Below, in pieces: positions 4,684 to 60,271 of a stretch of 64,000 bases of DNA. Numbering within the stretch: the stretch's first letter is position 1; each line of letters starts with the position of its first letter. The stretch lies in the NCBI GenBank assembly GCA_004193555.1, contig RPGP01000040.1, positions 65,127-129,126 on the forward strand, in the 5' to 3' direction. The translations under genes were made by a program, and so were the position numbers. Source of the DNA: Desulfobacteraceae bacterium Eth-SRB1 (GTDB lineage Bacteria > Desulfobacterota > Desulfobacteria > Desulfobacterales > ETH-SRB1). The notes below the pieces were generated by a model that saw only the letters and a list, made by a program, of their open reading frames with translations, was not told the DNA's origin and made no database searches.

Positions 4684-5773
4684 CTATGAAAGAAGCACTC
4701 TCTCAATAAAAGGATCAATCCCTCCATCCAGAACATTGTTTACATTGCCAACCTCAAGGTTTATCCTGTGATCCTTGACCATTTGATAAGGATGCAGGAC
4801 ATACGATCTGATCTGGCTGCCAAAGCCGATTTCATTTTTGCTGTCATGTATTTCTTGTAATTTTTCATCCTGCCTCTGCTTTTCAACCTGGTAAAGCCGG
4901 GATTTAAGCACCTTCATCGCCATTTCTTTGTTTCTGTGCTGGGATTTTTCCTGCTGGCACTGCACAACTATCTTGCTGGGAAGGTGAGTAATGCGGATAG
5001 CGCTGCTTGTTTTGTTAACATGTTGTCCTCCGGCTCCGCTGGCCCTGAAAACATCAATGCGCAGATCTTTATCATCAATTTCGACAACTATTTCTTTGTC
5101 CAGCTCAGGATAGACAAAAACGGAAGCAAAGGAAGTATGCCGCTTGCCGCTTGCATTAAAAGGTGAGATTCTTATCAGGCGGTGCACGCCTTTTTCAGTC
5201 TTTAAGTACCCGTAAGCATATTCTCCGCTTGCCGTGAAAGTAACACTTTTAATTCCCGCTTCATCGCCGGGCTGGAAATCGATTATTTTGACCTGATAGC
5301 CTTTGCGGTCGCTCCATCTTGTGTACATTCTAAAGAGCATTTCTGCCCAGTCCTGGGCTTCTGTGCCGCCTGCACCGGCATTTATGGAAATAATCGCATT
5401 GTTTTGATCATCCACGCCGTCAAGCATAAGGTCAAGTGAAAATTCATGTATTCTTTTATCAATGGCCTGAATCTGACCGGCTGCCTCTTCGATTGTATCG
5501 GCGTCTGATTCTTCCAGGGCAAGGTCGAGAAGTATTTTACTTTCTTCTAAATCATTATAGATATCTTTCCAGATTTTAATTTTTCCGGAAATTAAACTAC
5601 GTTCTTTTAATATATCCCTCGTTTCTTCAGGTTTGTCCCAGAATCCTTTTTTTGCGATTAATTGTTCGATTTCCTTTAATCTTTTTTCTTTTCCGGCAAG
5701 GTCAAAGACAACCTTTCAATTGTTCTAATTTCAGGAAAAGTTCATTAATGGTCTGATTAAGTTCTATAGACAT
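4684..5773 (-). CDS. prfB: Peptide chain release factor 2 (programmed +1 frameshift)
   Basis: Frame 0: ATG 5773, MSIELNQTINELFLKLEQLKGCL, then CTT TGA C at 5707-5701. The +1 frame continues DLAGKEKRLKEIE...MLDGVDDQNN into ORF 4684..5427, which carries AGGTEAQDW and the SPF and GGQ (GAGGQHVNK) motifs. Confidence 0.95.
5701..5709 (-). other. prfB +1 frameshift site (CTT TGA C)
   Basis: Minus strand reads GTCTTTGAC, with AAAGG a few nt upstream as a weak SD-like stimulator. Joining the two frames reconstitutes a full-length RF2. Confidence 0.9.
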
Positions 5774-6007: not shown

Positions 6008-7576
6008 TTTTATGTTATAATTATATTTTAACACAAAACAAACAATAGTTGCAACCATACAAATTATGGCAAACATATCTCCAAAACGGGTATATAGAGT
6101 TGTAATTTGAATTACAGGCACGCAGCGGGTCATTGTTGCTTCGACAAAAAGATCGGTTTTCCCAAGAATCCTGCCCGACGGGTCAATAAATCCGCTTATA
6201 CCGGTATTGGCGGATCTGATTAAAGAGCGTTTGTTTTCTACTGCCCTGAATATTGCCATGGAAAAATGCTGGTAGGGGGCAGCGGTTTTGCCAAACCAGG
6301 CATCATTTGTGATATTTATCAGTAATGCCGCATCGTTTTTTACCATGTCTCTGGAAAGACAGGGGAATATTATTTCATAACAGATCTGCAAGCCTAATTT
6401 GTAATCAGACCAGGTTATGGTTTTTCCCCTGGCGCCGGGTTTAAAATCGCCCACCCCTTCCACAAATTTGCCGATAAAGGGCAGCCAGTTATTAAAAGGA
6501 ACATATTCTCCGAAAGGAACAAGATGCACCTTGTCATATTTGCCGCGCACCTTTCCATCCCGCGTTATCAGATATGCGCTGTTGTAATATTCAACAGACT
6601 CTTTTTTATGGACAAAGGAAGGGCTGCCTATCAGAAAATCCGAGCCTGCATCTTTAATTCCCTTTTGAACTATATTTGACAGCATGATATTATTGAGAAA
6701 ATAAAAAGGTGTGGCGGTTTCAGGCCATATTATAAGGTCAGGATTATCTTTTTTTGATAGAAGAGAAAGCTCAATATATTTATTTACGGATTTAGTTTGA
6801 AATGCAGGGTCCCATTTTATTGACTGGTCTATATTACCTTGCACAATTGCGGCCTTTATAGATGGGGCGGCATATATCAGCTTGTCAACTGATTGAATAC
6901 TCCATTTTCCATAAAACCAGACAAGAATAAATGTCAGAGCAAAAACAGATATTGCGGCTGCTGCAAGCCTTTTTGTTACAGCCTTTTTTTGCCGGCGCGT
7001 ATCGATTATGCTAAGGAATATTAGGTAAATTGCCGAATTTGACAGAACAATTAAAAAGGAAACACCATAAACACCGAATATATCTGCAATCTGAATCAGG
7101 TGTAAATTTTTATATTGGGAATATCCGATTAGTTCCCAGGGAAATCCAAAGAAAAAAAGTGTGCGCGTATATTCAAATGATACCCATATGGCAGGCGTTA
7201 GAATAAGGGACATGCCGGGTTTTGAGCAGAGCTTTGACAGCGCGGCTGAAAAGCCTGCCATATAGACAGCAAGGAAGGAGGACAAAAGGATAAGTATGAT
7301 CACGCACAGTAAAAAAGGAAGGTGACCGTATGTTTTCATGGTATATGGGAGCCAGTATAATAGACTAATGTAATGGGAGAGCCCTGTTAAAAACCCCAGG
7401 AAAAAACTTTTTTGTATGGGAAGATTTCTTAAGGAGATAAGCAGTGGAACAAGGGCAAACCACGCAAACCAGGAGATGCCGACCTTTGGAAAGGATCCTG
7501 TGAGCAGCAGACCGCTTAGAACAGCTAAGATAATTTTCAGCCTGTCGTTCTTGTCATAATATTGTATAAGTGTCAT
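6005..7576 (-). CDS. lnt: Apolipoprotein N-acyltransferase
   Basis: 523 aa. N-terminal polytopic membrane domain plus C-terminal CN-hydrolase domain (IIWPETA, LQICYEIIFP, NITNDAWFG). Confidence 0.9.
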   Translation of the reverse strand: MTLIQYYDKNDRLKIILAVLSGLLLTGSFPKVGISWFAWFALVPLLISLRNLPIQKSFFLGFLTGLSHYISLLYWLPYTMKTYGHLPFLLCVIILILLSSFLAVYMAGFSAALSKLCSKPGMSLILTPAIWVSFEYTRTLFFFGFPWELIGYSQYKNLHLIQIADIFGVYGVSFLIVLSNSAIYLIFLSIIDTRRQKKAVTKRLAAAAISVFALTFILVWFYGKWSIQSVDKLIYAAPSIKAAIVQGNIDQSIKWDPAFQTKSVNKYIELSLLSKKDNPDLIIWPETATPFYFLNNIMLSNIVQKGIKDAGSDFLIGSPSFVHKKESVEYYNSAYLITRDGKVRGKYDKVHLVPFGEYVPFNNWLPFIGKFVEGVGDFKPGARGKTITWSDYKLGLQICYEIIFPCLSRDMVKNDAALLINITNDAWFGKTAAPYQHFSMAIFRAVENKRSLIRSANTGISGFIDPSGRILGKTDLFVEATMTRCVPVIQITTLYTRFGDMFAIICMVATIVCFVLKYNYNIK

Positions 7577-25615: not shown

Positions 25616-26686
25616 AAATTGTTCTGTCTCGATATACCCTTTTATTAAATCACCAACCTCTTTTGTCGTATATCCCATCCTTCCTGCCCCAACATCTTTC
25701 AGGTCATCACGCAGGACCTTTGCCACGCCCTTCTCTATCAATGCTGCGGCTTTGTTTTCACCGATTGTTTCCAACATAATCTGAGCCGCAAAAACGGCTG
25801 CAATAGGATTAATTACCTGTTTGCCGGTATACTTGGGAGCAGATCCGCCAATTGGTTCAAACATCGAAACACCGCCGGGATTAATGTTGCCTCCCGCAGC
25901 AATTCCCATGCCACCCTGTATCATTGCGGCCAGATCGGTTATTATATCTCCGAACATATTGTCTGTAACAATAACATCGAACCATTCCGGATTTTTTATC
26001 ATCCACATACAAACAGCATCGACGTGAGCATAATCTGTTTTAATGTCCGGGTACTCTTTTGCAACTTCATTAAAAGTGCGTTCCCACAGATCAAATGCAA
26101 AGGTCAACACATTGGTCTTTCCGCAAAGGGTCAACTTTTTGGCCTGGTTGCGCTTTCTGCAATATTCAAATGCATACCTGATACACCTTTCCACACCTTT
26201 ACGTGTATTTATCGATTCCTGTATCGCAACCTCATCAGGAGTCCCGCGCTTTAAGCATCCACCAGCGCCCACATAAAGGCCTTCTGTATTTTCACGTATT
26301 ACCACAAAGTCAATATCTTCAGGCAACTTGTTCTTTAAAGGTGTATTTACACCCACATATAATTTAACCGGCCTTAAATTAATATACTGATCAAAGTGAA
26401 ACCTGAGTTTTAAAAGGATGCCTTTTTCTAAAATGCCGGGCTTTACATCAGGATGGCCTATGGCGCCTAAGTATATCGCATCTGACAGGGCAAGCGACTC
26501 AAGCACTTTATCAGGCAGGATTTCTCCGGTTGCCCGGTAATGCTCGCCTCCTAAATTATAATGAGCAAAATTGATAACAAAACCGCACTTGTCCGCAACT
26601 GTTTCAAGAATCTTAATGCCTTCCGATATAACCTCAGGGCCTGTTCCATCACCTGGAATTACCGCAATAGAATATTCTTTTGTCAT
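25613..26686 (-). CDS. leuB: 3-isopropylmalate dehydrogenase
   Basis: 357 aa. [26 protein letters not shown] motifs. Confidence 0.9.
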
Positions 26687-47384: not shown

Positions 47385-49175
47385 ATGAAAAAACACTGGC
47401 AAATCTTACAGCCCGATACCCATTCGGTTGAAAAAATATCAAAGAGTTTACAATGCTCTCCTGTCATGGCTAATATCCTGGTAAACCGTAAAATTTCATC
47501 TCCGGATGATGCCGGCGCCTTCCTTAACCCCCTGCTTAAGAATATGCGCCCGCCATTTTCCATAAAGGATATGGATGCCGCAGTAAATCGCATCTATTCT
47601 GCCTTATTAAATCATGAAAAAATCCTGATATTCGGCGATTACGATGTTGATGGAATCACCGCAACAACAATACTCTACGAGTTTTTACATTATGCCGGAG
47701 CAGATGCTTCATACTATATTCCCCACAGGATAAAAGAGGGATACGGCCTGCATACAAAACATATAACAGATTATGCAATACCAAACAGAATAAACCTGAT
47801 AATCACCGTTGACTGCGGTTCAAGCAGCAATAATGCTGTAAAAGAGGCGCAACGTGCCGGAATCGATATAATAATAACGGATCACCACGAAATATCCGGC
47901 AAACCGCCCGACGCCGTTGCCGTATTAAACCCAAAGCGTCATGACTGTACATCCGGTTTTGACGATCTTGCCGGTGTCGGGGTGGCATTCTTCCTTCTGA
48001 TCTGCCTCCGAAAACATTTGCGCGATAATAATTTCTGGCGCCGGAAAACAGAACCTAATCTGAAAAATTATTGCGATCTTGTAGCTCTTGGAACCGTAGC
48101 CGACATGGTTCCTCTTGTCGATGAAAACCGCATGTTGGTAAAAACAGGGCTTGAAGTAATAAATTCAGGCAATCAATTTGGCATAAGGGGCGGCATAAAA
48201 GCTTTAATAGAATCCAGTGGAATAAAAAATAATTTTGTGGATACAGAGGATGTTGCCTTCAGGCTGGCGCCCAGATTAAATGCCGCAGGCAGGATCGACC
48301 ATGCCTTAACCGCTGTTGAGCTTCTGACAACAAATAACCTTGAGACTGCAAAACAACTTGCCCGGTCACTTAATAATATGAACTTTAAAAGACATGACAT
48401 TGAACAAAAAATCATGGAGGATATTTTTGAATATTTAAAAAACAATCAACATCTGCTTAAAAACAGTTCACTAATCTTAGCAGACTTCGCCCTGATGGCT
48501 GCGACGACTGAATCAGATAATGAACCGGGCGACAGGTGGCATGAAGGAGTTCTTGGTATAGTTGCATCAAGAATTGTGAATAAATATTTTCGTCCTGTTG
48601 TTCTTATTGCCGTAAAAAACGGCATTGGAAAAGGGTCGGCCAGGAGCATACCGGGATTCAATATCTATAAAGGGCTTGAGTCATGCTCTGACCATCTTGA
48701 AGCATTCGGCGGCCATTCAATGGCCGCAGGCCTGAAAATAAAAGCCGAACATATGGATATGTTTCGAGAAAACTTTGAAAACGCTGTTAAACAGATGACC
48801 TCGCCGGCTAATTTCGCGCAGAAAATCAGCATAGATTATGAGCTCAGTTTTGACGACATTTCCGATGCCCTGATCAACGAACTTGAAACCTTAAAGCCTT
48901 TTGGAACAGGCAACCATGAACCGGTTTTCATGGCCAAAAATATCAAGGTAATAGACTCCGGAATTGTTGGAAAAAATCACAGGCGAATGGTTTTAAAACA
49001 GTCCGCCGCTGGCGGAACAGGCAAAACAATCAATGCCATTCATTTCAATGTCGATACAGGAAAAAACCTGCGGGATAACTTTGATCAAATGGCATTCAGA
49101 CTGCGCTGGAATCACTGGAACGGAAAAAAAACAGCTCAAATTGTTATCGAGGATCTTGCTGGAACCAGAGACTGA
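47385..49175 (+). CDS. recJ: Single-stranded-DNA-specific exonuclease RecJ
   Basis: DHH motifs (GDYDVDGITA, TVDCG, ITDHH) and a DHHA1 domain (GGHSMAAG). Confidence 0.95.
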   Translation: MKKHWQILQPDTHSVEKISKSLQCSPVMANILVNRKISSPDDAGAFLNPLLKNMRPPFSIKDMDAAVNRIYSALLNHEKILIFGDYDVDGITATTILYEFLHYAGADASYYIPHRIKEGYGLHTKHITDYAIPNRINLIITVDCGSSSNNAVKEAQRAGIDIIITDHHEISGKPPDAVAVLNPKRHDCTSGFDDLAGVGVAFFLLICLRKHLRDNNFWRRKTEPNLKNYCDLVALGTVADMVPLVDENRMLVKTGLEVINSGNQFGIRGGIKALIESSGIKNNFVDTEDVAFRLAPRLNAAGRIDHALTAVELLTTNNLETAKQLARSLNNMNFKRHDIEQKIMEDIFEYLKNNQHLLKNSSLILADFALMAATTESDNEPGDRWHEGVLGIVASRIVNKYFRPVVLIAVKNGIGKGSARSIPGFNIYKGLESCSDHLEAFGGHSMAAGLKIKAEHMDMFRENFENAVKQMTSPANFAQKISIDYELSFDDISDALINELETLKPFGTGNHEPVFMAKNIKVIDSGIVGKNHRRMVLKQSAAGGTGKTINAIHFNVDTGKNLRDNFDQMAFRLRWNHWNGKKTAQIVIEDLAGTRD

Positions 49176-51765
49176 TGTCTTCCAGAAATTTCTTCTTGTA
49201 ATAAGCTGTTTTTGCGGCGTTGCCCATTATCATATCCAGTTGCCTTGTATGCATTGTAAGATAACCAATTGCTTTAAGACGTTTTAATATGGAAAATTGA
49301 TCATATGCCGCAATAGCTGCATTCATATAATCTTCATATATTTCAACCTGAAAATCATATTTGACCAGGATGTCTTCTATAAGCTTCATCCTGCGGAATT
49401 TTCTGTTATGATCTGCAGCGCCACCCTTAAAATAAAATTTTATGTAATTCTCTCCGGGTTTGTCGCTGACAAAGGTCTGCACAACCGAATAATGATAGCC
49501 GAACCGGCAGCTGAGATTGCAAAAGTTTTTTGAAATAATAGCGCAGTCGTTTTGCGCATAACTGGACTTGCTTGATGCGCACAGATCACGATTCATAGTA
49601 GATTCAACCATGATGGAAAGAAACCCCTTGGTATCTACTGAAGGCGGGCCGTCCCATTCTACCTCGGTCATTCCCTCCCAGAGGGCCATCATCGGAACTG
49701 ATGCTATATTTTCAAGTTTTACAGTATCTTTTCCCATTGATCCTTTTAAGCCATCGCCCAGGTCAACGATCCACCACTGCGCTGGAACATCATTTATAAT
49801 CAGTCTTTTCCCTGCCTTGATTCCTTTGCTGTTTCTGCCGGAATCAAACATTTCTTTTACAGCCTTTTCGTGGCAGAACCGGGTGACGTCGTGATATGTA
49901 TGGCAGCCATCAGGCGTAAAATTATCGCCTTTTGGATCAATGAGATTCAGCGGGGTGATATGCTTTAGCGTTCTTTTAAGCGTTATATAAACAGGGCTCC
50001 CTTTAATTCTGCTGATGCCCCCTGCAGGCGACTCTCTTAATAATGCTTCGGCCTTTCCTTCATAGACTTTTCGCGCATAGGTATCAACTGTGATTATTGT
50101 TCCATTTTTAATTTTGTCGGTAGCTGCAAGCGTATCAAAAAGCGCCGGGATGCCGAATTCTCTTGTAACTGTGGCTAAATGACCGGCAATTCCCCCGCGG
50201 TCGGTTACCACCGCAACAGCCTTGTTCAGTATTGTGGCCCACTGAGGCAAAGAGTTTTTTGTCACCAAAACAGCGCCCGCAGGAAATTTGTAAATTTCTT
50301 CGGCAGAGTTCACAATAAATGCAGGCCCGCAGGCCACACCCGGGCTTGCCGCAACTCCTCCATTTAGTATCATACGATTATTAACTTTTATAGCTGATGT
50401 ATCTTTAAATTCATTATCTTCTTTTCTTAACTGTTTCAGTGGACGGCTCTGGAGTATCCTGATCAGGCCGTCCTTTTCTATAGCCCATTCGATGTCTTGA
50501 GGAGTTTTAAAATGATTTTCAAGGATAACTGCCTGTTTTGCCAGAAACTGCGCCTGTGCATCCGTGATGGCCGGCGCATATTTCTCCTGCTCAGGCAATT
50601 CGCTGATGTGCAGTTCTTTGTTGGAGAAAATTAAAATTCCCTGATCTTTGGCATGAATCTCTTTTTTAAGGATTTGAACAGGTTGTTCCCTGGAGACTGC
50701 AAATACGTCGGGTGATATGCTTCCCTCAACCACTGATTTTCCTAATCCAAAAACCGCATTTATGAATATCTGATTGTTGTGAATGTCACCGGGATCTTTC
50801 GAATACATAACGCCGCTGGAGACAGCTTCAACCATGGCCATGCAACCGACGCACATCATAACATCTTCATCGCTAAAACCCTTGTTAAAACGGTATGTAA
50901 TGGCCTGAAGGGAATACTTGCCGGCAAGAATTTTTTTATAAGAGTGAATCAGTGTTTTAAAGCTGACATTCAGTTCTGTGTGATATTGACCTGCAAAAGA
51001 GGATTCCCGGCTGTCTTCACCTAAGGCGCTGCTGCGCATTGATACTTTGACGTTTTTTTCTGTTTTTTCTTCCAGGGTTCTGTATTCATCAAATATTGCC
51101 GCTTCAAGTTCCGGAGGAACCGGTGATTGCATGATAAGCTCTTGTATATTTGAGCTGGCCATTCCCAGCATTTTTATATCTTCAATATCAACAGATTGAA
51201 GCTGCTGGTTGATTTTTTTTTGAAGGTCGCCGTGATTCAGAAACAAATGATACGCAGAGGCGGTAATAACAAAACCTTGCGGAACGTTAAGGTCTGTCAG
51301 GTTCATAATTTCGCCCAGATTAGCCATTTTACTGCCGGTATGGTCTGCGCTGTCTTTATTTATCTCTTCGATTGACAGTACCGGTTTACCCTCAATCGAC
51401 TTTTCTCTTTCTTCCAGTGTTTGATTTATTTTATATTGAATATCAGCTAAAGCATAATAGAGCTTTTCATAACGACAGCCTGAAATCTCGTTTATTTTTT
51501 CAATTAGTTGATATATATTTACTGAAATGGATGTGCAGTGTGCACGAATGAATTCCATACCGAATTTATGGTCTCCGCGAAGCGCCAGTTCCATCTCTGA
51601 CATGATCTCAAGTATTGCACTGTTTATGCTTAGAAAACTTTTAAAGTTCCAGTACTTGGTTTTGAAACGGGAACGGCTGGCATCATCTGACAATTCTTCA
51701 GGATTAGGGCTTTCCTGGTTTTTTACGCAAAATATTTTTTTTATTGCCTGCCTTAATCCAAACAT
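49144..51765 (-). CDS. Atypical PEP-utilising enzyme (ATP-grasp PPDK_N-like + phosphohistidine swivel + novel C-terminal domain)
   Basis: Swivel-domain motif TDRGGIAGHLATVTREFGIPA in mid-protein, followed by about 300 aa unlike the PpsA/PPDK TIM barrel. Start reassigned to ATG 51765 (GGAG 5 nt upstream) because the ORF-track ATG 51837 overlaps a sigma54-type promoter. Confidence 0.7.
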   Translation of the reverse strand: MFGLRQAIKKIFCVKNQESPNPEELSDDASRSRFKTKYWNFKSFLSINSAILEIMSEMELALRGDHKFGMEFIRAHCTSISVNIYQLIEKINEISGCRYEKLYYALADIQYKINQTLEEREKSIEGKPVLSIEEINKDSADHTGSKMANLGEIMNLTDLNVPQGFVITASAYHLFLNHGDLQKKINQQLQSVDIEDIKMLGMASSNIQELIMQSPVPPELEAAIFDEYRTLEEKTEKNVKVSMRSSALGEDSRESSFAGQYHTELNVSFKTLIHSYKKILAGKYSLQAITYRFNKGFSDEDVMMCVGCMAMVEAVSSGVMYSKDPGDIHNNQIFINAVFGLGKSVVEGSISPDVFAVSREQPVQILKKEIHAKDQGILIFSNKELHISELPEQEKYAPAITDAQAQFLAKQAVILENHFKTPQDIEWAIEKDGLIRILQSRPLKQLRKEDNEFKDTSAIKVNNRMILNGGVAASPGVACGPAFIVNSAEEIYKFPAGAVLVTKNSLPQWATILNKAVAVVTDRGGIAGHLATVTREFGIPALFDTLAATDKIKNGTIITVDTYARKVYEGKAEALLRESPAGGISRIKGSPVYITLKRTLKHITPLNLIDPKGDNFTPDGCHTYHDVTRFCHEKAVKEMFDSGRNSKGIKAGKRLIINDVPAQWWIVDLGDGLKGSMGKDTVKLENIASVPMMALWEGMTEVEWDGPPSVDTKGFLSIMVESTMNRDLCASSKSSYAQNDCAIISKNFCNLSCRFGYHYSVVQTFVSDKPGENYIKFYFKGGAADHNRKFRRMKLIEDILVKYDFQVEIYEDYMNAAIAAYDQFSILKRLKAIGYLTMHTRQLDMIMGNAAKTAYYKKKFLEDISLWFQQDPR

Positions 51766-51820
51766 AATTACTCCGAATTTCAGTTCATTAATCTTGAGCA
51801 TAGATATTGCATAAATTACA

Positions 51821-51836
51821 GTCAAGAAACGTGCCA
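51821..51836 (-). promoter_or_regulatory. Sigma54-type -24/-12 promoter candidate for the PEP-utilising enzyme gene
   Basis: Minus strand reads TGGCACGTTTCTTGAC. This matches TGGCACG-N4-TTGC except that the C of the -12 GC is an A. Confidence 0.5.
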
Positions 51837-51900
51837 TATCAAAATATCCATAAATTGATGATAGTTATATTTATACGGCAGGCGGGCAGGTCCAAGGATG

Positions 51901-51986
51901 TTTCAAAACGAAACATCCTTGTGCGAATTATAATCTTAATTGCCGGATGAGTACGTGTTCTCGTGGTAAAATTTCAATATGAAACA
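51901..51986. promoter_or_regulatory. Two copies of the TTTCA-N3-(T/C)GAAACA palindrome (candidate activator sites)
   Basis: TTTCAAAACGAAACA (51901-51915, centre of a 12-bp perfect palindrome 51893-51921). TTTCAATATGAAACA (51972-51986, left arm of a 13-bp perfect palindrome 51969-52006). They lie 65-150 bp upstream of the minus-strand promoter. Confidence 0.5.
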
Positions 51987-52036
51987 CCAGTTCCATATTG
52001 AAATTTAACAGGTGGTTGGGTTTGCAATCTGCAATG

Positions 52037-52378
52037 GAATTATTTACTCAAGTTTCGCACCCTTTAATTTATCCAAAGCGTTAGACGGTAAGGGCTAAAA
52101 ATAAATTTTAAAGCGAAATATACTGCCTGTGGTTTTTACAACGGCGCCAATCAATAACTATAAGATTGATGCCTGACACTTTATTAAATTCAATAAGTTA
52201 TATCTCCTTTGCGCCTGTCTGCGTGCGGTTACGCACAGGCAGGCCTGATCATAATCTATGTTGCACTTAGATGTTGTTTACAAAATATAAGCAAATGATT
52301 TCGCTGTAAAAATGTTATTTTCAACCCTTACCGTCTTGATATTGATAGAAATCAAGGGTGCGAAACTTGAATTATTTA
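52037..52378. repeat. Pair of inverted ~82-nt modules flanking a 177-bp spacer
   Basis: 52037-52119 versus the reverse complement of 52297-52378. Shared blocks: TCAAGTTTCGCACCCTT, GACGGTAAGGG, AAAATAA, AGCGAAAT. The spacer carries the hairpin TGCGT-GCGGTT-ACGCA. Confidence 0.7.
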
Positions 52379-52404
52379 TTTTTAATTGACAGTATCATTA
52401 TAAT

Positions 52405-52452
52405 TTGATGAATTCGTAAAAAGTGGTTTTCCCACTTTTTACGAGTGCATTA
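52405..52452. repeat. TAAAAAGT-hairpin element (minimal form)
   Basis: TTGATGAATTCGTAAAAAGTGG-TTTTC-CCACTTTTTACGAGTGCATTA. Confidence 0.8.
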
Positions 52453-52497
52453 TAATTTGATTAGCCTTTTTTATAAATTTATAATCAGGAGTGGACA

Positions 52498-52926
52498 ATG
52501 AAGCACAAGATATTACTTGTTGATGATGAAGAAATAATGCTCAAGTACCTTTCAAAATTCTTGATAAAAAAGGATTTTGATATCAGCACGGCAATAAGCG
52601 GCAATGAAGCCCTGGAAATAATCAAGGAACAGGATTTTATTGTGGTGCTGCTGGATGTGTTAATGCCGGGGATGGATGGGATAGAAACCCTCAGAGAAAT
52701 AAAGAAAATCAAACCCTTGACAGAAGTAATAATGCTTACCGGCCATGCCTCGGTTCAGGTCGCTATGCAGGGTATGAAATTGGGGGCCTTTGACTATCTT
52801 ATGAAACCTTTTGATCAGGACAAACTCCTTGAAAAATTGCAAATGGCATGTGAGAAAAGAATATTTAACGAGAAAGGTATAGATTTTGTCAACATACCGG
52901 AAATGACGCCCAAAAAACCGGTATAA
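52498..52926 (+). CDS. Single-domain response regulator (CheY-like)
   Basis: ILLVDDEE...VLLDVLMPGMDG...LTGH...KP. AGGAG RBS. Confidence 0.9.
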   Translation: MKHKILLVDDEEIMLKYLSKFLIKKDFDISTAISGNEALEIIKEQDFIVVLLDVLMPGMDGIETLREIKKIKPLTEVIMLTGHASVQVAMQGMKLGAFDYLMKPFDQDKLLEKLQMACEKRIFNEKGIDFVNIPEMTPKKPV

Positions 52927-52990
52927 TATATCCCGCCGTCTTTTATTTACCCTATATTTACCTTTCAAATGCTTTTGTTTCTGATTACAA

Positions 52991-53103
52991 TTTCAAAATG
53001 AAACATAGTTGCAAAATGAAACACAAGCCCGGATATCTGCCCAAATTAGACTTCAACACAAAAAAATATCAACGATGCCTTTTATGCGTTTCACATTGAA
53101 ACA
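52991..53103. promoter_or_regulatory. Three copies of the TT(T/G)CA-N3-TGAAACA palindrome (candidate activator sites)
   Basis: TTTCAAAATGAAACA (52991-53005), TTGCAAAATGAAACA (53009-53023), TTTCACATTGAAACA (53089-53103). They lie 63-175 bp upstream of the plus-strand promoter. Confidence 0.5.
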
Positions 53104-53165
53104 ATGTCAGGCCTCTTCTTTGAGCTGAAAAATGTAACCATTTATATTCATTAGATAAATTTATC

Positions 53166-53181
53166 TGGCATGTTTTTTGAG
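53166..53181 (+). promoter_or_regulatory. Sigma54-type -24/-12 promoter candidate for the usp-like/SLC13 operon
   Basis: TGGCATGTTTTTTGAG. GG and TTG are correctly spaced. It shows the same A-for-C deviation at -12 as the divergent promoter. Confidence 0.45.
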
Positions 53182-53320
53182 TATAGTTTTAATATGTTTG
53201 TATTTAATGGCATTGATAATAAGAGACAGTGGCAGCCAACCCGACAATTTATATGAAAAGTCAGGTTTTTGGGTGGGTGGCAGGACTTTTCGTTCAGACA
53301 CTAATTAGGGATATGATCAA

Positions 53321-53758
53321 TTGAACAAAATACTTATACCTTTAGATAAATTTTCTGACATATCACTTAATGCGGCTCGCTATGCTATTGAATTCGCCAG
53401 GAGAAGCGGCTCTAAACCTATTTTTCTTTTTTTATCCGGAGATGATGATGAAACCAGGAAAGATCGTCTCACGGCATCAGGATCTCAATCATCTGAAAAA
53501 GAGAAAAAAATAAGAAAAAAAATAGAGTTGCTTATAGACCGGAGTACTATGGAAGGAATCAACATTGAGCAGTATGAGGGTCGTGGTGAATACATTGAAA
53601 AGGTCTGTGAATTCGTGCGAAATTTGAGCATAGCCGAAATCGTGATTGCAGTCCCTGATAAAAAGGATGAGGATTACAAAAAAATAAAGAAAAATATATC
53701 TTTGCTGGTTCAGATGACATCGTGCCGGGTATTGACCGTAAAGGAAAAAGAAAATTAA
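53321..53758 (+). CDS. Universal-stress-protein-like protein
   Basis: TTG start. MNKILIPLDKFSDISLNAARYAIEFARRSG..., a USP-like alpha/beta fold with a charged low-complexity insert. Confidence 0.6.
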   Translation: MNKILIPLDKFSDISLNAARYAIEFARRSGSKPIFLFLSGDDDETRKDRLTASGSQSSEKEKKIRKKIELLIDRSTMEGINIEQYEGRGEYIEKVCEFVRNLSIAEIVIAVPDKKDEDYKKIKKNISLLVQMTSCRVLTVKEKEN

Positions 53759-53785
53759 ATGTAATAACAAGGAGATTGACTATTT

Positions 53786-55603
53786 ATGGAATCTAATGTG
53801 TTAACAACAGAAATGATTTTAGTTATGTTTATGATCGGAGTGGCGGTATTCCTTTTTATCGTTGAATGGATTCGAGTTGATATGGTGGCTATACTTATGA
53901 CCGTTACCCTTCCTTTGCTTCATCTCGTTACGCCTAAAGAGGCATTCTCCGGTTTTAGCAGCAATGCCGTAATTTCCATCATTGCAGTTATTATCATAGG
54001 CGCCGGCCTTGACAAAACCGGCCTTATAAACAGGCTGGTTAAGCCTGTTATGAAAATAGCCGGCAATAGCTCATCGCGTGTTATTCTGGGAATGGGCGCC
54101 ACTGTAGCTGTAATTTCAAGTTTTATGCAGAACATCGGGGCTGCGGCTCTTTTCCTGCCGGCTATCAGGCGCGTCAGCAAAGCAACAAATATATCGCTGT
54201 CCCGGATGCTGATGCCTGTTGGTTTTTGTGCAATTTTAGGGGGCACTATCACCCTGGTTGGATGCAGTCCATTAATTCTTCTCAACGATTTACTTGCTCC
54301 GTTTAACCTTGAGCCATTCAACCTTTTTGATGTTACACCTATCGGTCTGGCGCTGGTAGGAACAGGAATCGCATTTTTCATTCTCTTTGGCCGCTTTGTG
54401 CTGCCAAAAGGAGAAGCCGGCGGCAGCGATTCTTCTGATGGATCTATCCCGGAATTATCAAGTTCTTATGAACGTATTGGAGATCCTTTTGAATTAAAAG
54501 TGCCCGGCGATTTCACCGAGTTCAGGGATCCTTTGACAACGAGAGATATACGGGAAAAATATCTGGTAAATGTGGTTGGAATCGTTGGCAGAGATGGTTT
54601 TAAGATGCTTTCCGCTGCTCCGGACATGGAGATAAGATCTAACAACGATATAGTAGTCTACGGGCTGCGGAAAAATGTAGAGAAAATGGCCAAAGAACTT
54701 GGAATGCAGATTAAAGACTCGCTGGATTTATTTCAAAATGAAATGTCTGAGGCCATATCCGGAACCATTGAGGCTGTTGTTGCGCCGCGTTCTGAATTAA
54801 TTGGCAAAACCTTGAGAAAAGCGCACTTCTGGGAACAGTTTCAGGTAAACCCGCTGGCAATTTACCGCTCAGACAAAGCTTTTTATTCCGGACTGTCGGA
54901 TTTTGAATTGCGATCAGGTGATTCAATACTGCTTCATGGCACCTGGGAGAGGTTTAATATTTTACAGGAAAGACACAATTTTATTTTTACAACTCCGGTA
55001 AGTGAAGTTCTTAAGCCGCAAAAAGCTCTAATATCCGGTTTCTGGCTAACAGTAGCTCTTGTAATGATAATTATATTCAAAATCCAGTTATCAGTAGCTC
55101 TTATGACCGGGGCCTTTGGAATGGTTGTTTGCCGGGTGCTGACTATAGATGAAGCATACAAGTCTGTTGACTGGCGGACGATTTTCCTCCTGGCCGGACT
55201 TATTCCATTGGGAATTGCAACTGAGAAAACCGGAGCTGCAGCGTGGATTGCTTATACTATTCTTAATTTAATAGGAGACGTTTCTCCTGTTGTGCTTTTC
55301 ACGGCCATAGCGGTGCTTTCCACATTCTTTACTCTCGTTATTTCGAACGTGGGCGCTACAGTGCTTCTTGTGCCGCTTGTAGTGAATATGGCCATGGCAG
55401 CAGGGGCAGATCCGAGGATGGCCGCCCTTGTGGTAGGCCTGGCGACTTCTAACTCGTTTATGCTGCCGACACATCAGGTTAATGCGCTTTATATGGGCCC
55501 GGGCAGATATAGAAGTGTAGATTTTATGAAAGCCGGCGGGTTTATGACTGTATTATTTATAGTAGTGCTGATCGGGATGCTTTATGTGTTTTATGGCATT
55601 TAA
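53786..55603 (+). CDS. SLC13/DASS-family permease with two central TrkA-C domains
   Basis: 605 aa. Two polytopic halves separated by a roughly 200-aa soluble region with duplicated TrkA-C-like segments. Confidence 0.85.
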   Translation: MESNVLTTEMILVMFMIGVAVFLFIVEWIRVDMVAILMTVTLPLLHLVTPKEAFSGFSSNAVISIIAVIIIGAGLDKTGLINRLVKPVMKIAGNSSSRVILGMGATVAVISSFMQNIGAAALFLPAIRRVSKATNISLSRMLMPVGFCAILGGTITLVGCSPLILLNDLLAPFNLEPFNLFDVTPIGLALVGTGIAFFILFGRFVLPKGEAGGSDSSDGSIPELSSSYERIGDPFELKVPGDFTEFRDPLTTRDIREKYLVNVVGIVGRDGFKMLSAAPDMEIRSNNDIVVYGLRKNVEKMAKELGMQIKDSLDLFQNEMSEAISGTIEAVVAPRSELIGKTLRKAHFWEQFQVNPLAIYRSDKAFYSGLSDFELRSGDSILLHGTWERFNILQERHNFIFTTPVSEVLKPQKALISGFWLTVALVMIIIFKIQLSVALMTGAFGMVVCRVLTIDEAYKSVDWRTIFLLAGLIPLGIATEKTGAAAWIAYTILNLIGDVSPVVLFTAIAVLSTFFTLVISNVGATVLLVPLVVNMAMAAGADPRMAALVVGLATSNSFMLPTHQVNALYMGPGRYRSVDFMKAGGFMTVLFIVVLIGMLYVFYGI

Positions 55604-55620
55604 TCAGGATATAAACGTTT

Positions 55621-55808
55621 ACAGTTCACGGTTAAAATGCTTCAGGTGTTACATAGCTCGTAACCCCGCCGTGGCGGGGCTTGAAACTTGAAATTGGAAA
55701 GTAGAAATTGGGAAAAACAGTACAAAAACATGAAGGCCAAATTTCCAATTTCTAATTTCAATGTTCCGTGAACGCTTAGTATAGTTCATTGAAAAAAGTG
55801 TGAACTGT
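55621..55808. repeat. Nested palindromic element containing the 29-nt CTTGAAA-word core (39-nt unit, copy 3)
   Basis: Outer ACAGTTCAC/GTGAACTGT (55621-55629 / 55800-55808). Core CTTGAAACTTGAAATTGGAAAGTAGAAAT (55680-55708) faces the partly complementary CCAAATTTCCAATTTCTAATTTCAATG (55737-55763). Confidence 0.85.
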
Positions 55809-55847
55809 AAGCTGACAACCGTTTTTAACATTTTAAGGAGGGCAAAA

Positions 55848-56681
55848 GTGTCCATTATAACTATTACCGCAGGTTCTTACAGCAATGGAAAGCAAATAGC
55901 CAAAAGCGCTGCCAAAAGATTGAAGTACGAGTATGCAGATAGCGAAATTATTTTATCATTGGTTTCCAAAGAATTCGGTGTTTCTGAATCGAAGCTTGCT
56001 CGAACTCTTAAAGATATACCTTCAAGCATCGGCATGTTTTCTCAGGCTAAACAGCAACATATAATATATATAGATACTGTGTTCACAGAATATATGTTGA
56101 AAAATAATATTGTATATTATGGAGCCATCGGGCTTCCGTTTATCCAGAAAATATCTCATGTGTTCAAAGTTCAAATTATTGCTGCGTTAGAAGACAGAAT
56201 TAAGAACAAAGCAAAGCTGGATGGCGAATCTCAAGAGAAAGCACGTAAAACAGTTGTCAAGGAAGATAATCAGCAAAAAAAATGGGCTGCGGCCGTTTAC
56301 GATATAGACCTTACAGATCCGAACTTATATGATCTAATAATAAATATCGGACATATACAGGATGATGATGTGGAAAATGCTCTGCAAACTATTATTAGTA
56401 CCGTAGAACACAAGAAATTTCAACCGATGACATATTCCTTAAGGTGTGTGAAAAATGTTGCGATGTCATGTCGTGTTAGGGCAACTCTGGCGGATATAGA
56501 TCCAAAAATACAGGTAAAATCCGATAAAGGAACTGTTTATATATATACCAAAGCAATAAAGAAAAAGGCACAGGATAAGGGATTAGAAATGAAACAAAAG
56601 GTAATGAGAATTGAAGGGGTCAAGCACGTTGAAGTTTATGTAGATAATGATTTATTTTCGACAGTTGCCCATGGGCAATAG
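55848..56681 (+). CDS. Cytidylate-kinase-like family protein with degenerate P-loop and BON-like C-terminus
   Basis: GTG 55848 with AGGAGG upstream. ITITAGSYSNGKQ replaces a canonical GxxxxGK[ST]. C-terminal ...MRIEGVKHVEVYVDNDLF. Confidence 0.6.
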   Translation: MSIITITAGSYSNGKQIAKSAAKRLKYEYADSEIILSLVSKEFGVSESKLARTLKDIPSSIGMFSQAKQQHIIYIDTVFTEYMLKNNIVYYGAIGLPFIQKISHVFKVQIIAALEDRIKNKAKLDGESQEKARKTVVKEDNQQKKWAAAVYDIDLTDPNLYDLIINIGHIQDDDVENALQTIISTVEHKKFQPMTYSLRCVKNVAMSCRVRATLADIDPKIQVKSDKGTVYIYTKAIKKKAQDKGLEMKQKVMRIEGVKHVEVYVDNDLFSTVAHGQ

Positions 56682-56745
56682 TCCTGTTTTGGATAATTTT
56701 ATTGGCAAGTTAAAAGATATCAGCATATTAAATAGATTAAGGTAA

Positions 56746-56784
56746 CCGTTCACGGCTTGAAACTTGAAATTGGAAAGTAGAAAT
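56746..56784 (+). repeat. 39-nt unit, copy 4 (44 nt upstream of the response-regulator ATG)
   Basis: CCGTTCACGGCTTGAAACTTGAAATTGGAAAGTAGAAAT, identical to copy 1. Confidence 0.9.
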
Positions 56785-56827
56785 ATAGGGAGAAGGGCGC
56801 TAATTTAATATCTATGAGGAGGTAAAA

Positions 56828-57214
56828 ATGAAAGAAAAATTAGACATCCTGTTGCTGGATGATGAAGCTATAGTTGGAAACAGGTTGAAGCCTGTTCTGG
56901 AGAAAGTTGGTTGCGATGTTGAACTGTTTGAAGATCCCAAAAAAGCTCTTAACAGGATTCGCGAAAAAAAGTTTGATATAGTTATTACAGATATAATGAT
57001 GCCGGATGTTAACGGTATACAGATACTGGAAGAGGCGCGAGAAAAATCAGATATTACAAAAGTAATTATTATTACAGGCTATGCAACAGTAGCTATGGCT
57101 CGTGAAGCTATGGACAAAGGCGCTTTTGATATGATTGCCAAGCCATTCACTCCTGATGATCTTCGCTCTGTAATAGCAAAAGCAGCTGATTCACTTGGCT
57201 ATAAAAAATTATAG
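56828..57214 (+). CDS. Single-domain response regulator
   Basis: ILLLDDEA...VITDIMMPDVNG...ITGY...KPF. GGAGG RBS. Confidence 0.9.
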   Translation: MKEKLDILLLDDEAIVGNRLKPVLEKVGCDVELFEDPKKALNRIREKKFDIVITDIMMPDVNGIQILEEAREKSDITKVIIITGYATVAMAREAMDKGAFDMIAKPFTPDDLRSVIAKAADSLGYKKL

Positions 57215-57322: not shown

Positions 57323-58855
57323 ATGACAAATCCTCTTGAATCTAAATCCAGCTTTATACGCAATTCAAAAAAACCTGCTCTCGATACCGAGGAGCGGGAC
57401 CTGCTTGCACGGCCACGTTTTAGTCTTCGGCTACATATGCTGCTGGTGTTTATTCTTTTCTCCTTTCTGTCGATGGCTATTATTATTGGTTCCGTTATAG
57501 CCATAAACCGCATACAAAAGAAGCTGAACTTCGTTCAAAGCTCTGAAAGATATCTTTTTGATATTGCGCAAGCCAGGAGGTGGGAAAAAAACTATTTTTT
57601 GTATGATACAAATCTCGAAGATGCGGTTCAGAGCGCCGGTAATGCGAAAAGTCTTTTATCCCAAAGCCTGGAAAAGGTCATAACTGTTTTATCAGCAGAA
57701 GAGACAGCAACTGTACTTAAGCACCTTGATCAATACATTGGCCTTCTGCAAGAGTTAACAATGTTAGAAAAAAATAACATTAAGAATGCTGATAAAAAAA
57801 GCGAGATCGAAACTTCTTTGAGACAACACGGCGCTGAGATGGTTAAAGTAGCGGCTGCTCTGGTTACTAAAGAGCAAAATTCCATAAATGCTATGCTTCA
57901 CCTTATTCAGAGGATTCCTATTTACTGTCTCGCATTTGCTCTGTTATTAACATTTTTTGCGTCACGTTTTCTTTCACACAGATTGATAAAGCCACTTAAT
58001 CTCCTCATTGAAAGCACTCAAAGAATAGCAAAGGGAGATTTTTCTCCGGTCCCGCCACTTTGTAAATACCGTGGTGAATTTTCAGCAGTAGAGATGGCTA
58101 TCAATCAAATGTGTAACGAGCTGAAATCGCGTGAAGTTGCTATGGTTGAATCCCACAAGCTTAGAGCAATCGGAACTTTAACAGCCGGTGTGGCGCACGA
58201 ATTGAACAATCCGCTAAACAATATAATGCTCACAGCACATGCCATGCTTGAAGATCATAATGACCTGTCTGAAGATGAGCTGCTTGAAATGATAAACGAT
58301 CTCATTAACGAAGCAGACAGGTCGCGAAGTATAGTTCGTAATCTGCTGGATTTTGCAAGAGAAAGCGAGTCTGTCTCCGAACCTCTTGATCTGGAAGCGC
58401 TGGTTAGCGAAACAATTAAATTAACGCTGAATCAGGCTAAGGTATCCGGAGCAAAAATAGAAACTCAAATTCAGCCCGACCTTCCTCGTATACGCGGGGA
58501 TAAACAGCAATTGAAGCAGGTTTTTTTAAACCTGATCCTTAATGCCCTGGATGCTGTCGAAAAAAATGGAATTGTTAAAATAAATGTTAAAAAAGCCGAT
58601 AGTCCTGGATTTTTGGCTGTTCAGGTAGAAGACAATGGCTGCGGAATACCCGCTCATATTTTGCCTAATATATTTGATCCGTTTTTCACTACAAAAGGGC
58701 CGGGAAAGGGCACTGGACTGGGTCTTTCTGTTTCCCATGGCATCATTACAATGCATGGTGGACAGATCAGTATTGAAACTGAAAAAGGAAAATATACAAA
58801 GTTTACGGTAACTCTCCCTTTTAGAACTGTTCCTGCGGTTTTCAACAAAACCTAA
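57323..58855 (+). CDS. Sensor histidine kinase (TM-HAMP-HisKA-HATPase)
   Basis: H-box GVAHELNNPLN. N, G1 and G2 boxes (LNLILNALDA, DNGCGI, GTGLGLS). Confidence 0.9.
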   Translation: MTNPLESKSSFIRNSKKPALDTEERDLLARPRFSLRLHMLLVFILFSFLSMAIIIGSVIAINRIQKKLNFVQSSERYLFDIAQARRWEKNYFLYDTNLEDAVQSAGNAKSLLSQSLEKVITVLSAEETATVLKHLDQYIGLLQELTMLEKNNIKNADKKSEIETSLRQHGAEMVKVAAALVTKEQNSINAMLHLIQRIPIYCLAFALLLTFFASRFLSHRLIKPLNLLIESTQRIAKGDFSPVPPLCKYRGEFSAVEMAINQMCNELKSREVAMVESHKLRAIGTLTAGVAHELNNPLNNIMLTAHAMLEDHNDLSEDELLEMINDLINEADRSRSIVRNLLDFARESESVSEPLDLEALVSETIKLTLNQAKVSGAKIETQIQPDLPRIRGDKQQLKQVFLNLILNALDAVEKNGIVKINVKKADSPGFLAVQVEDNGCGIPAHILPNIFDPFFTTKGPGKGTGLGLSVSHGIITMHGGQISIETEKGKYTKFTVTLPFRTVPAVFNKT

Positions 58856-58888: not shown

Positions 58889-60271
58889 TTGTCGTTGAAA
58901 AAGGACGATGAAAATACATTGATACGTATTGCGGTTATTGATGACGAGCCTTTGGTTCTGCGAAATTTGCAGAGAAAAATAAGTAAAAGCGGCTACCGGG
59001 TTGAAACATTTCAAAATCCTCAAAAAGCCATCGATCGAATGAAAATAGCGCCATTCGATGTTATTCTAACCGATTTACACATGCCTGAAATGGATGGCAT
59101 GCAAGTTTTAGCGAAAATCAGAGAAAATTATCCTAAAACAGAGGTTATAATTATTACCGGCTATGCATCCATAAACAGCGCCGTTGAAGCGGTAAAACAA
59201 GGCGCTTTTTACTACATTGAAAAGCCCTTTACCCCTGAACAGGTTATGCTGATATTAAACCGCGCGATTGAGAAGCTGCGTTTGGCCGGCGAAAATAAAA
59301 GGCTTAAGGAGGATCTTTTCAGAAAAGATAATGTGCGACAAATCATTGGTATAAGTTCTCCTATCCGTGAATTAATTAAAATGATTCAAAAAGTATCCAG
59401 GATAAACTGTAATGTTCTTATTCAAGGAGAAAGCGGGACAGGTAAGGAACTGACAGCAAAGGCAATACATTTCGGGGGGCCGAGAAAAGACAAACCTTAT
59501 ATCAGTTTTAATTGCGGCAGTTTTACAGAGGAGTTGATAGCCAATGAACTTTTTGGCCATGAAAAAGGAGCTTTTACCGGCGCAGAAAGTGTGAAGGTGG
59601 GTTTGTTGGAAGCAGCACAGGGAGGGACTGTCTTTCTTGATGAAATAGGGGAAATGCCCCTTTCCATGCAGGTTAAGTTGCTCAGGGTAATCCAGGAAAA
59701 GAAACTGATCAGAGTAGGGGGATCTGACCCTGTTGATCTGGATATCAGAGTGATATCTGCCACAAATAAAGATCTGGAAAACGAAGTCAAGGCCGGAAGG
59801 TTTAGAGGAGATCTTTACTTCCGTCTTAAAGTAGTCAAAATTCGTGTTCCTTCACTCAGGGAAAGAAAAGGAGACATGCTCCTTTTAACGAAATATTTTA
59901 TAGATAAATACAACAAGCTCTACAACAAAAAAATTAAGGGTTTTAGTAAACAGGCTCTAAATCTTTTGACAAAATATTCTTTTCCTGGGAATGTGCGAGA
60001 ACTTGAACACATTGTTTCAAGCGCCATTGCTCTGGGAGAAAAAACCTGGATTAATGAAAACGAACTTCCCGAGGATCTTGACCATCTAATAGTGGAGACA
60101 GTTGAAAACAGAGATTTGCTTCCTCTTTATGAAGAAGAGAAAGCCCATATTATCAGGGTGCTTGAAGCTACTAATTATAACAAAATTAGAGCTTCAAAAA
60201 TACTTGATATCCCAAGAACAACCTTGTGGAGAAAGATAAAAAAATACGGCATCATGGAATCTTTGGGATGA
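58889..60271 (+). CDS. Sigma54-dependent Fis-family response regulator (NtrC type)
   Basis: REC domain, AAA+ GESGTGKE, GAFTGA loop (HEKGAFTGA) and C-terminal Fis HTH (ASKILDIPRTTLWRKIKKYG). Confidence 0.95.
   Translation: MSLKKDDENTLIRIAVIDDEPLVLRNLQRKISKSGYRVETFQNPQKAIDRMKIAPFDVILTDLHMPEMDGMQVLAKIRENYPKTEVIIITGYASINSAVEAVKQGAFYYIEKPFTPEQVMLILNRAIEKLRLAGENKRLKEDLFRKDNVRQIIGISSPIRELIKMIQKVSRINCNVLIQGESGTGKELTAKAIHFGGPRKDKPYISFNCGSFTEELIANELFGHEKGAFTGAESVKVGLLEAAQGGTVFLDEIGEMPLSMQVKLLRVIQEKKLIRVGGSDPVDLDIRVISATNKDLENEVKAGRFRGDLYFRLKVVKIRVPSLRERKGDMLLLTKYFIDKYNKLYNKKIKGFSKQALNLLTKYSFPGNVRELEHIVSSAIALGEKTWINENELPEDLDHLIVETVENRDLLPLYEEEKAHIIRVLEATNYNKIRASKILDIPRTTLWRKIKKYGIMESLG

Follow-up and report, generated by a model that had tools for sequence, protein, structure and literature searches.

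A 64,000-nucleotide stretch of the genome of Desulfobacteraceae bacterium Eth-SRB1 (assembly GCA_004193555.1, contig RPGP01000040.1, positions 65,127 to 129,126; this whole stretch is called the window below) raises the question of how two diverging transcription units are controlled: on the minus strand a gene for a phosphoenolpyruvate (PEP)-synthase-like phosphotransferase, and on the plus strand an operon that begins with a universal stress protein (USP)-like gene and includes a DASS/SLC13 anion transporter. Each unit is preceded by a sigma-54-type promoter element and by copies of one palindrome, and a histidine kinase and an NtrC-type enhancer-binding protein (EBP) are encoded in the same cluster. 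Our analysis suggests, with a probability of about 0.8, that these are two sigma-54-dependent promoters switched on by this one two-component system, a reading supported by phylogenetic footprinting and by linkage to the EBP. The design of an EBP with its sigma-54 regulon is in itself ordinary; what is notable is the three-site architecture shared by both promoters, the spread to paralogous modules, and a conserved non-canonical -12 position. A regulon with its activator, DNA site, two promoters and targets would thereby be defined in uncultured Desulfobacterales with almost no known regulation, the lineage of Ca. Desulfaltia and its relatives, which includes partner bacteria of alkane-oxidising archaea.

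Promoter elements and putative activator sites

The pattern TGGCAYG-N4-TTGM matched three times in the window against 0.22 matches expected, and two of these matches are the TGGCAYG-N4-TTGA elements that a previous sequence-only reading had placed upstream of the PEP-type gene and the USP operon (Table 1); both were recovered at the same positions and on the same strands, far beyond chance. Each carries the GG of -24/-25 (TGGCAC at 51836-51831, minus strand; TGGCAT at 53166-53171, plus strand). The canonical GC at -13/-12 within TTGCW is absent from both: the exact 10-bp spacing from GG and the TTG are retained, and the C is replaced by A (TTGAC, TTGAG). Both elements are intergenic, correctly oriented and near a gene start, with predicted leaders of 45 nt (PEP) and about 129 nt (USP, to the TTG start at 53321), when -24 is taken as the second G of GG, the numbering from which the predicted start sites derive. 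The distance of 56 nt between the 3' end of the PEP promoter (51821) and the ATG at 51765, as given by the sequence-only reading, also holds. Neither predicted leader RNA folded better than shuffled sequence (z = -0.5 and +0.2), and an Rfam scan of 51000-54000 returned nothing meaningful (best E-value 0.34).

The palindrome TTKCA-N3-YGAAACA was found at exactly five positions in the window (51901, 51972, 52991, 53009 and 53089) against 0.05 expected, and 0 of 100 shuffles reached five copies. The earlier claim that this motif occurs five times and only here stands as far as these five copies are concerned, none being found elsewhere in the window, but it missed a sixth, degenerate copy (GTTCCATATTGAAAT, 51990-52004), which was revealed by a relaxed search and pairs with the copy at 51972, the two together forming a 20-nt inverted repeat. 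With this sixth copy, the initial count of two sites at the PEP promoter versus three at the USP promoter is corrected to three at each, and the reported distances of 63-175 bp between site starts and promoters are unchanged. The symmetric core of the palindrome reads GTTTCA-N3-TGAAAC.

Both promoters share one layout, with a single proximal site at 73 bp and a pair of sites, 18-19 bp apart, about 70-100 bp farther upstream. An enhancer of this type would be expected to have at least two inverted-repeat sites about 80-200 bp upstream; each promoter has three (at about -97, -168/-177 and -187/-195), and these would offer room for three dimers or one AAA+ hexamer. The stretch that separates the proximal site from the -24 element contains an AT-rich block, AAATATAACTAT, present in both window promoters and in the PEP and USP promoters of Desulfaltia-like loci, which is a candidate DNA-bending or integration host factor (IHF)-like site. 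The promoters do face apart, as had been described, with one qualification: they are not expected to share one enhancer because they lie 1.33 kb apart, each with its own set of sites, and because a receiver gene (RR1) and an insert resembling a miniature inverted-repeat transposable element (MITE) lie between them.

The third match of the promoter pattern (25899, minus strand) was rejected as a promoter, as it lies inside a dehydrogenase open reading frame (ORF) where it encodes GGMGIAAGG, a coding coincidence. Intragenic sigma-54 sites are known from Escherichia coli, and the canonical-looking element at 25899-25913 (minus strand; TGGCATGGGAATTGC) may be such a site, chance being the likelier explanation. 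Exact TTTCA-N3-TGAAA cores are also found inside coding regions, at 54731-54743 (SLC13) and 49341-49353 (PEP). Both are missing the outer G and C that complete the full site, the PEP copy is kept as coding sequence in relatives, and neither is likely to be functional.

Conservation across relatives

A genome scan by protein with the PEP-type enzyme yielded 14 loci, most of them in Ca. Desulfaltia or Desulfobacteraceae metagenome-assembled genomes (MAGs; 73-91% identity), three in Desulfonatronovibrio (40%) and one in Desulfonauticus (39%). Further orthologous clusters (L031, L035, L048, L057, L058, L074 and L110) came from a metagenome pattern scan for site plus promoter, which required TTGA and whose matches are therefore unusable for -12 usage. 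About 20 Desulfobacterales contigs (Ca. Desulfaltia-like) share the layout, the gene set and the NtrC-type activator, as does Desulfonatronovibrio despite protein identities of only 40-70%. Desulfaltia-like loci have the PEP gene and, divergently, the genes for RR1, USP, SLC13, a cytidylate-kinase-like (CK-like) protein and a second receiver (RR2), in some cases followed by those for the histidine kinase (HK) and the EBP; Desulfonatronovibrio has the same targets, with HK-EBP (52% and 63% identity) relocated to the opposite flank of the PEP gene. Despite this rearrangement, the EBP is linked to the targets at 63-92% identity across Desulfobacterales and Desulfonatronovibrio.

Upstream of both transcription units, these loci keep TGGYAYR-N4-TTGA, the proximal palindrome (71-76 bp from the -24 G, or about 85 bp for the USP promoters of Desulfonatronovibrio) and distal sites, and the intervening DNA has diverged or carries insertions. 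The PEP promoter was present as TGGYAYR-N4-TTGA in 15/15 orthologous loci and the USP promoter was conserved in 16/16 (TTGA in 15, TTGC in one), with TGGCA kept in 31/31 apart from an occasional TGGTA or CGGCA. Among all aligned promoters, the distance from the proximal site to the -24 G is 68-76 bp for each of the 15 PEP-type and for 13 of the 16 USP-type promoters, the exceptions being three Desulfonatronovibrio-type USP promoters (L010, L011 and L031) with about 85 bp. The upstream site pair is found in Desulfaltia-like loci, and Desulfonatronovibrio-type loci have one distal site (PEP) or none (USP). Across 270 kb, comprising the window and the protein-selected loci, sites with 0-1 mismatch numbered 32 in the 5.4 kb of regulatory regions versus three in the other 265 kb, and two of these three were truncated remnants of the regulatory region beside the PEP gene in rearranged genomes. 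The occurrence of these elements at fixed spacing before the same two units, in Desulfaltia-like MAGs as well as in Desulfonatronovibrio, supports the initial proposal of sigma-54 promoters with upstream activator sites. In Desulfonauticus (L013), which encodes a PEP homologue and a distantly related EBP (38% identity), no palindrome sites were found.

A different arrangement was observed in sister genomes (L005, 1886-12604; L008, L002 and L014), where a PEP-type sigma-54 promoter heads a longer operon with the PEP gene at its end, in the order TetR, SulP/STAS, CK-like::receiver fusion, dCache kinase, receiver, unknown, receiver, HisKA protein and PEP gene. Directly before the PEP gene of L008, the closest relative (91%), there is only a truncated distal-site remnant.

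The -12 position

The A-for-C change shared by both promoters, already pointed out in the sequence-only reading, is not a local oddity, as the -12 tetramer is TTGA in 30/31 alignable orthologous promoters and TTGC in one, a count that includes promoters unmatched by the TTGA scan pattern. Among the promoters of the paralogous module described below (n = 8, protein-selected), TTGA occurs four times, TTGT twice, and TTGG and TTGC once each. The C at -12 is conserved in 96% of bacterial sigma-54 promoters and helps to restrain basal transcription (Schaefer et al. 2015, PMC4551910). Because of this high conservation, its near-absence across the regulon family is, judging from the alignments, a real deviation, which would be either specific to the regulon or a trait of RpoN in this lineage. 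Sigma-54 promoters with a non-consensus -12 have been discussed for basal or bypass transcription (PMC4551910, citing Gralla laboratory work), and these E. coli promoters likewise have lost the C of the -12 GC while keeping the -24 GG and the -13 G; they are, however, scattered single cases, whereas the loss seen here is regulon-family-wide and extends over two bacterial orders. Such a conserved loss offers a natural experiment on a base that is thought to hold sigma-54 promoters silent.

The two-component system and its paralogous module

Near the sites, and conserved together with them, is an EBP with the GAFTGA loop in its AAA+ domain and a C-terminal helix-turn-helix (HTH), the sole GAFTGA protein in the window. 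Its NCBIfam equivalog scores are below the cut-offs (414 versus 714 bits for AtoC, the best match, and 395 versus 559 for NtrC, with ZraR also below), and by these scores it is a generic member of the NtrC family, not a named orthologue of the NtrC, AtoC, ZraR or GlrR groups. A Pfam search gave no Cache domain match for the histidine kinase and no CBS protein in the cluster.

A paralogous module has the same organization: genes for a HAMP kinase and an EBP (42-53% identity) are followed by two GTTTCA-N3-TGAAAC sites about 80 bp apart and then by a -24/-12 element, the proximal site lying about 73 bp from the GG as in the window promoters. Its operon encodes a USP, a long CK-like protein (about 506 aa), a TauE/SafE permease, a receiver and more genes. 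Unbiased resampling of this module via the long CK-like homologues gave eight independent loci, all of which carry the sites, at distances ranging from under 100 bp to a few hundred bp from the EBP stop codon in 8/8. The HTH helix PRTTLWRK goes with TGAAAC half-sites (L018, L020, L023, L047, L067, L075 and L077) and the helix DRVSLWRK with TGCAAC half-sites (L066, L096, L106 and L126). This pairing may reflect covariation of protein and DNA and would modestly favour recognition of the site by the EBP.

Arrays of GTTTCA half-sites that end in a full GTTTCA-N3-TGAAAC were observed in a further set of loci (L036, L052, L055, L071, L084, L098 and L131), where the promoter TGGCAC-N5-TTGATATAAG follows the array and the associated EBP has the HTH helix SRATFWRKRKKYG; these may represent another regulon family with a related site.

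Alternative explanations

Several observations weigh against control of both promoters by the local two-component system. The missing -12 C is a departure from consensus; when the whole window was roughly scanned for canonical sigma-54 promoters, no convincing intergenic example with TTGC emerged that could serve as a within-genome control; neither an rpoN gene nor an RpoN box was found in the 64 kb; and, judged by eye, the resemblance of the AT-rich block to the E. coli IHF consensus (WATCAANNNNTTR) is poor and partial. Furthermore, the putative assignment of the sites to the EBP at 58889-60271 is by linkage only, and Desulfobacteria carry dozens of EBPs, up to about 50-70 (PMC12316311). The palindromes might thus be sigma-54 enhancers bound by a different EBP encoded elsewhere, with the local kinase and EBP controlling something else, which would be in keeping with the fairly generic HTH_8 recognition helix (RTTLWRK) and with a view limited to 64 kb of the genome. 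We consider this quite unlikely, given that the EBP still adjoins its targets after the rearrangement in Desulfonatronovibrio, that the EBP of the paralogous module ends close to the sites at every resampled locus, and that the HTH variant and the half-site variant shift together.

It is also conceivable that TTGA(C/T) doubles as the -35 of an overlapping sigma-70 promoter, resulting in dual or sigma-70-only control with the palindromes as classical activator or repressor operators, since TTGAC and TTGAT are similar to TTGACA, a scan flagged TTGACT-17-TATGCT at 51825-51797, and many relatives have TATAAT or TATAGT after the -12 element. A promoter made up of TTGAYT and a downstream -10 was nevertheless rejected for lack of conservation, the putative -10 (TATGCT, CGTGCT, CATGCT, TGTGCT) varying along with a spacing of 17 to 27. 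An invariant TGGCA at fixed spacing would not be needed by a sigma-70 promoter, the TTGT, TTGG and TTGC of the paralogous promoters argue that the TTGAC box is dispensable, and sites 97-195 bp upstream would be atypical for sigma-70 control, so that we regard this explanation as very unlikely. Finally, the several MITE-like insertions in and around the regulatory regions could suggest that the similarity is decaying inherited sequence without present function, or that the repeats were spread by mobile elements. This is extremely improbable, because the elements and their spacing survive where proteins are 40-70% identical and flanking DNA is unalignable, the insertions lie between the elements and never in them, and there are no extra copies elsewhere.

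Proposed mechanism

If both promoters are sigma-54-dependent and controlled by the system encoded beside them, the membrane histidine kinase (57323-58855) would sense an external or envelope signal and phosphorylate the receiver domain of the NtrC-type activator (58889-60271). Activator dimers would then fill the three GTTTCA-N3-TGAAAC sites of each promoter, form an active AAA+ ring and contact the closed sigma-54 holoenzyme by looping across the AT-rich stretch, and ATP hydrolysis would lead to promoter opening. The predicted outputs are the PEP-synthase-like phosphotransferase with its novel C-terminal domain and the operon for USP, the DASS/SLC13 anion transporter, the CK-like protein and RR2, which may read through into HK-EBP and so provide positive autoregulation. 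RR1 and RR2, both single-domain receivers, probably have a modulating effect, either on phosphate flow or on the CK-like protein; a fusion of a CK-like protein with a receiver exists in relatives. The candidate regulon outlined in the sequence-only reading, with the CK-like gene as a possible member, is corrected by the conserved unit USP-SLC13-CK-like-RR2, to which both the CK-like gene and RR2 belong. The transported substrate might be an inorganic oxyanion such as sulfate, and the regulon probably functions in oxyanion, possibly sulfate, uptake.

Comparison with known systems

NtrB/NtrC with glnAp2 is the textbook two-component sigma-54 enhancer. The predicted system would resemble it in three respects: phosphorylation of an AAA+ activator on its receiver domain by a kinase, oligomerisation aided by adjacent dimer sites, and activation through a DNA loop from about 100-200 bp upstream. 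It differs in site sequence, in the arrangement of one proximal and two distal sites about 70-100 bp apart, and in its non-nitrogen targets.

Closer parallels are found in the EBP/sigma-54 regulons of Desulfovibrio vulgaris Hildenborough (Kazakov et al. 2015, PMC4641369; Rajeev et al. 2011, PMC3333781), for example DVU2956, which controls DVU2957-2964 (transmembrane transport), and DVU0110/DVUA0057, which controls a TSUP permease operon. In Desulfovibrionales, EBP genes adjoin the sigma-54 targets, each regulon covers 1-4 operons, TSUP transporters account for several targets, and many Desulfovibrio motifs have TGT and ACA half-sites 9, 11 or 12 bp apart (PMC4641369). The regulon described here is similar in its small size, in the co-localisation of EBP and targets, in its palindromic TGT...ACA sites (TGTTTCA-N3-TGAAACA, that is, TGT-N11-ACA), and in anion-transporter targets from families proposed as sulfate carriers. 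By contrast, the Desulfovibrio promoter consensus is tGGcacg/tTGCt (PMC4641369) and the -12 here is TTGA instead of tTGCt, and the targets here are a PEP-synthase-like enzyme, USP, a DASS transporter and a CK-like protein. Neither GTTTCA-N3-TGAAAC nor this gene set occurs in the text, figures aside, of Kazakov et al. 2015 and Rajeev et al. 2011.

DASS, SulP and TSUP are candidate sulfate-carrier families of sulfate reducers (PMC5840216), and Desulfobacteraceae clusters of DASS or SulP genes with two-component systems and TetR have been proposed to control sulfate uptake (Sci Adv 2025, PMC11887813). Like those clusters, for which uptake control by sensor kinases was proposed, the present loci group DASS or SulP transporters with kinases and receivers, and a TetR gene stands beside SulP in L005. 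Those clusters, however, have cache-domain kinases, WalR-type regulators and CBS proteins, whereas here there are a HAMP-only kinase, an NtrC-type sigma-54 regulator, and USP and CK-like proteins instead of CBS proteins. With kinase, regulator and CBS proteins differing, the window cluster falls outside the DASS cluster type of that study, and by this comparison the resemblance would be a lead on function, not evidence of membership.

A much broader generalization would be that a widespread two-component EBP family of Desulfobacterota reads GTTTCA-N3-TGAAAC and controls USP/CK-like/anion-transporter modules (DASS, SulP, TauE; candidate sulfate carriers) from a subclass of sigma-54 promoters without the near-invariant -12 C. 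We consider this doubtful at present. If true, the C-less subclass would behave differently, for example as leakier or more easily melted promoters, and the EBP family would supply the transcriptional link still missing from sulfate-uptake regulation. An anion carrier (DASS, SulP or TSUP/TauE) is among the targets in every version, be it that of the window, of the paralogous module or of the sister genomes, and because this carrier comes from a proposed sulfate-import family, the model of site plus promoter could be used to find sulfate-uptake control in genomes and metatranscriptomes.

Predicted target genes

Table 1 Coordinates of promoters, activator sites and genes, numbered from the first nucleotide of the window
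Feature	Position	Strand	Details
PEP-synthase-like gene promoter, sigma-54-type	51821-51836	-	TGGCACG-N4-TTGAC (TGGCACGTTTCTTGAC, 51836-51821); -24 G 51834, -12 A 51822, predicted start site ~51810
AT-rich block, PEP promoter	51851-51873	-	AAATATAACTATCATCAATTTA, between proximal site and -24 element
PEP promoter proximal site	51893-51921		core GTTTCAAAACGAAAC (51900-51914) within perfect 12+12 nt inverted repeat (repeat I24); centre 73 bp from -24 G, ~-97 from start site
PEP promoter distal pair	51971-52004		ATTTCAATATGAAAC (51971-51985) and GTTCCATATTGAAAT (51990-52004) (repeat I4); centres ~-168 and ~-187, 19 bp apart
USP promoter distal pair	52990-53022		ATTTCAAAATGAAAC (52990-53004) and GTTGCAAAATGAAAC (53008-53022); centres ~-195 and ~-177, 18 bp apart
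USP promoter proximal site	53088-53102		GTTTCACATTGAAAC, perfect core match; centre 73 bp from -24 G, ~-97 from start site
AT-rich block, USP promoter	53128-53151	+	AAAAATGTAACCATTTATATTCAT, counterpart of 51851-51873
USP operon promoter, sigma-54-type	53166-53181	+	TGGCATG-N4-TTGAG (TGGCATGTTTTTTGAG); -24 G 53168, -12 A 53180, predicted start site ~53192
Target gene 1, PEP-synthase-like phosphotransferase	49144-51765	-	PPDK_N ATP-grasp and mobile His domain (Pfam, NCBIfam)
RR1, single-domain receiver	52498-52926	+	between the two site sets; position kept in all syntenic loci
Target operon 2	53321-57214	+	USP-like, DASS/SLC13, cytidylate-kinase-like, RR2
USP-like	53321-53758	+	conserved TTG start
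DASS/SLC13-CitMHS transporter	53786-55603	+	with TrkA_C domain
Cytidylate-kinase-like (CK-like) protein	55800-56681	+	PF13189
Receiver RR2	56828-57214	+	
Histidine kinase	57323-58855	+	two transmembrane segments, helical sensor, HAMP, HisKA, HATPase
NtrC-type activator (EBP)	58889-60271	+	REC, AAA+ Sigma54_activat with exact GAFTGA, HTH_8

The longest ORF of the PEP-type gene begins at an ATG (51837) that overlaps the -24 element, and the true start is ATG 51765, as the sequence-only reading had reassigned it: MFGLRQAIKK and the preceding GGAG ribosome-binding site are kept in relatives, and the 24 codons upstream are not, some relatives carrying a 230-bp insertion there. The enzyme aligns to PEP synthase (PDB 9dae, 2ols) only over the nucleotide-binding and phospho-histidine domains (residues ~23-508), and is probably an ATP-dependent phosphotransferase. 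Its C-terminal region, about 300 aa long (49147-50043, minus strand), stands where a PEP/pyruvate TIM-barrel domain is usual and has 26 invariant residues among homologues; no Pfam and no PDB sequence match was found for it, and the AlphaFold model (pLDDT 78, pTM 0.69) gave no Foldseek match to the PDB at E <= 0.001. The CK-like protein likewise had no PDB relative. RR1 has its own sigma-70-like promoters at 52429-52485 and no sigma-54 element upstream.

Insertions between the elements

Besides RR1, the inter-promoter stretch holds a MITE-like hairpin of about 320 bp and a 38-bp hairpin with a 14-bp duplication. The MITE-like element (52037-52378) carries the 10-bp direct repeat GAATTATTTA at each end, has long terminal inverted repeats (52038-52069; 52349-52380) and folds into a single long hairpin (z = -8.2); it is missing at the same position in L006 and L001, and no second copy was found in the window or the loci. 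The 38-bp hairpin (cgtaaaaagtgg/ccactttttacg, 52396-52461) lies just 5' of RR1, is flanked by the 14-bp direct repeat CATTATAATTTGAT and resembles a small insertion with target duplication; L003 is without it. In relatives, GC-rich hairpin inserts resembling repetitive extragenic palindromic (REP) elements were observed, the regulatory elements themselves being spared. In L009 (~6120-6290 and 5130-5330) and L035 such REP-like inserts separate the distal from the proximal sites and are also found within the USP leader, and L001, L004 and L007 have a 230-bp insert between the PEP promoter and its ribosome-binding site.

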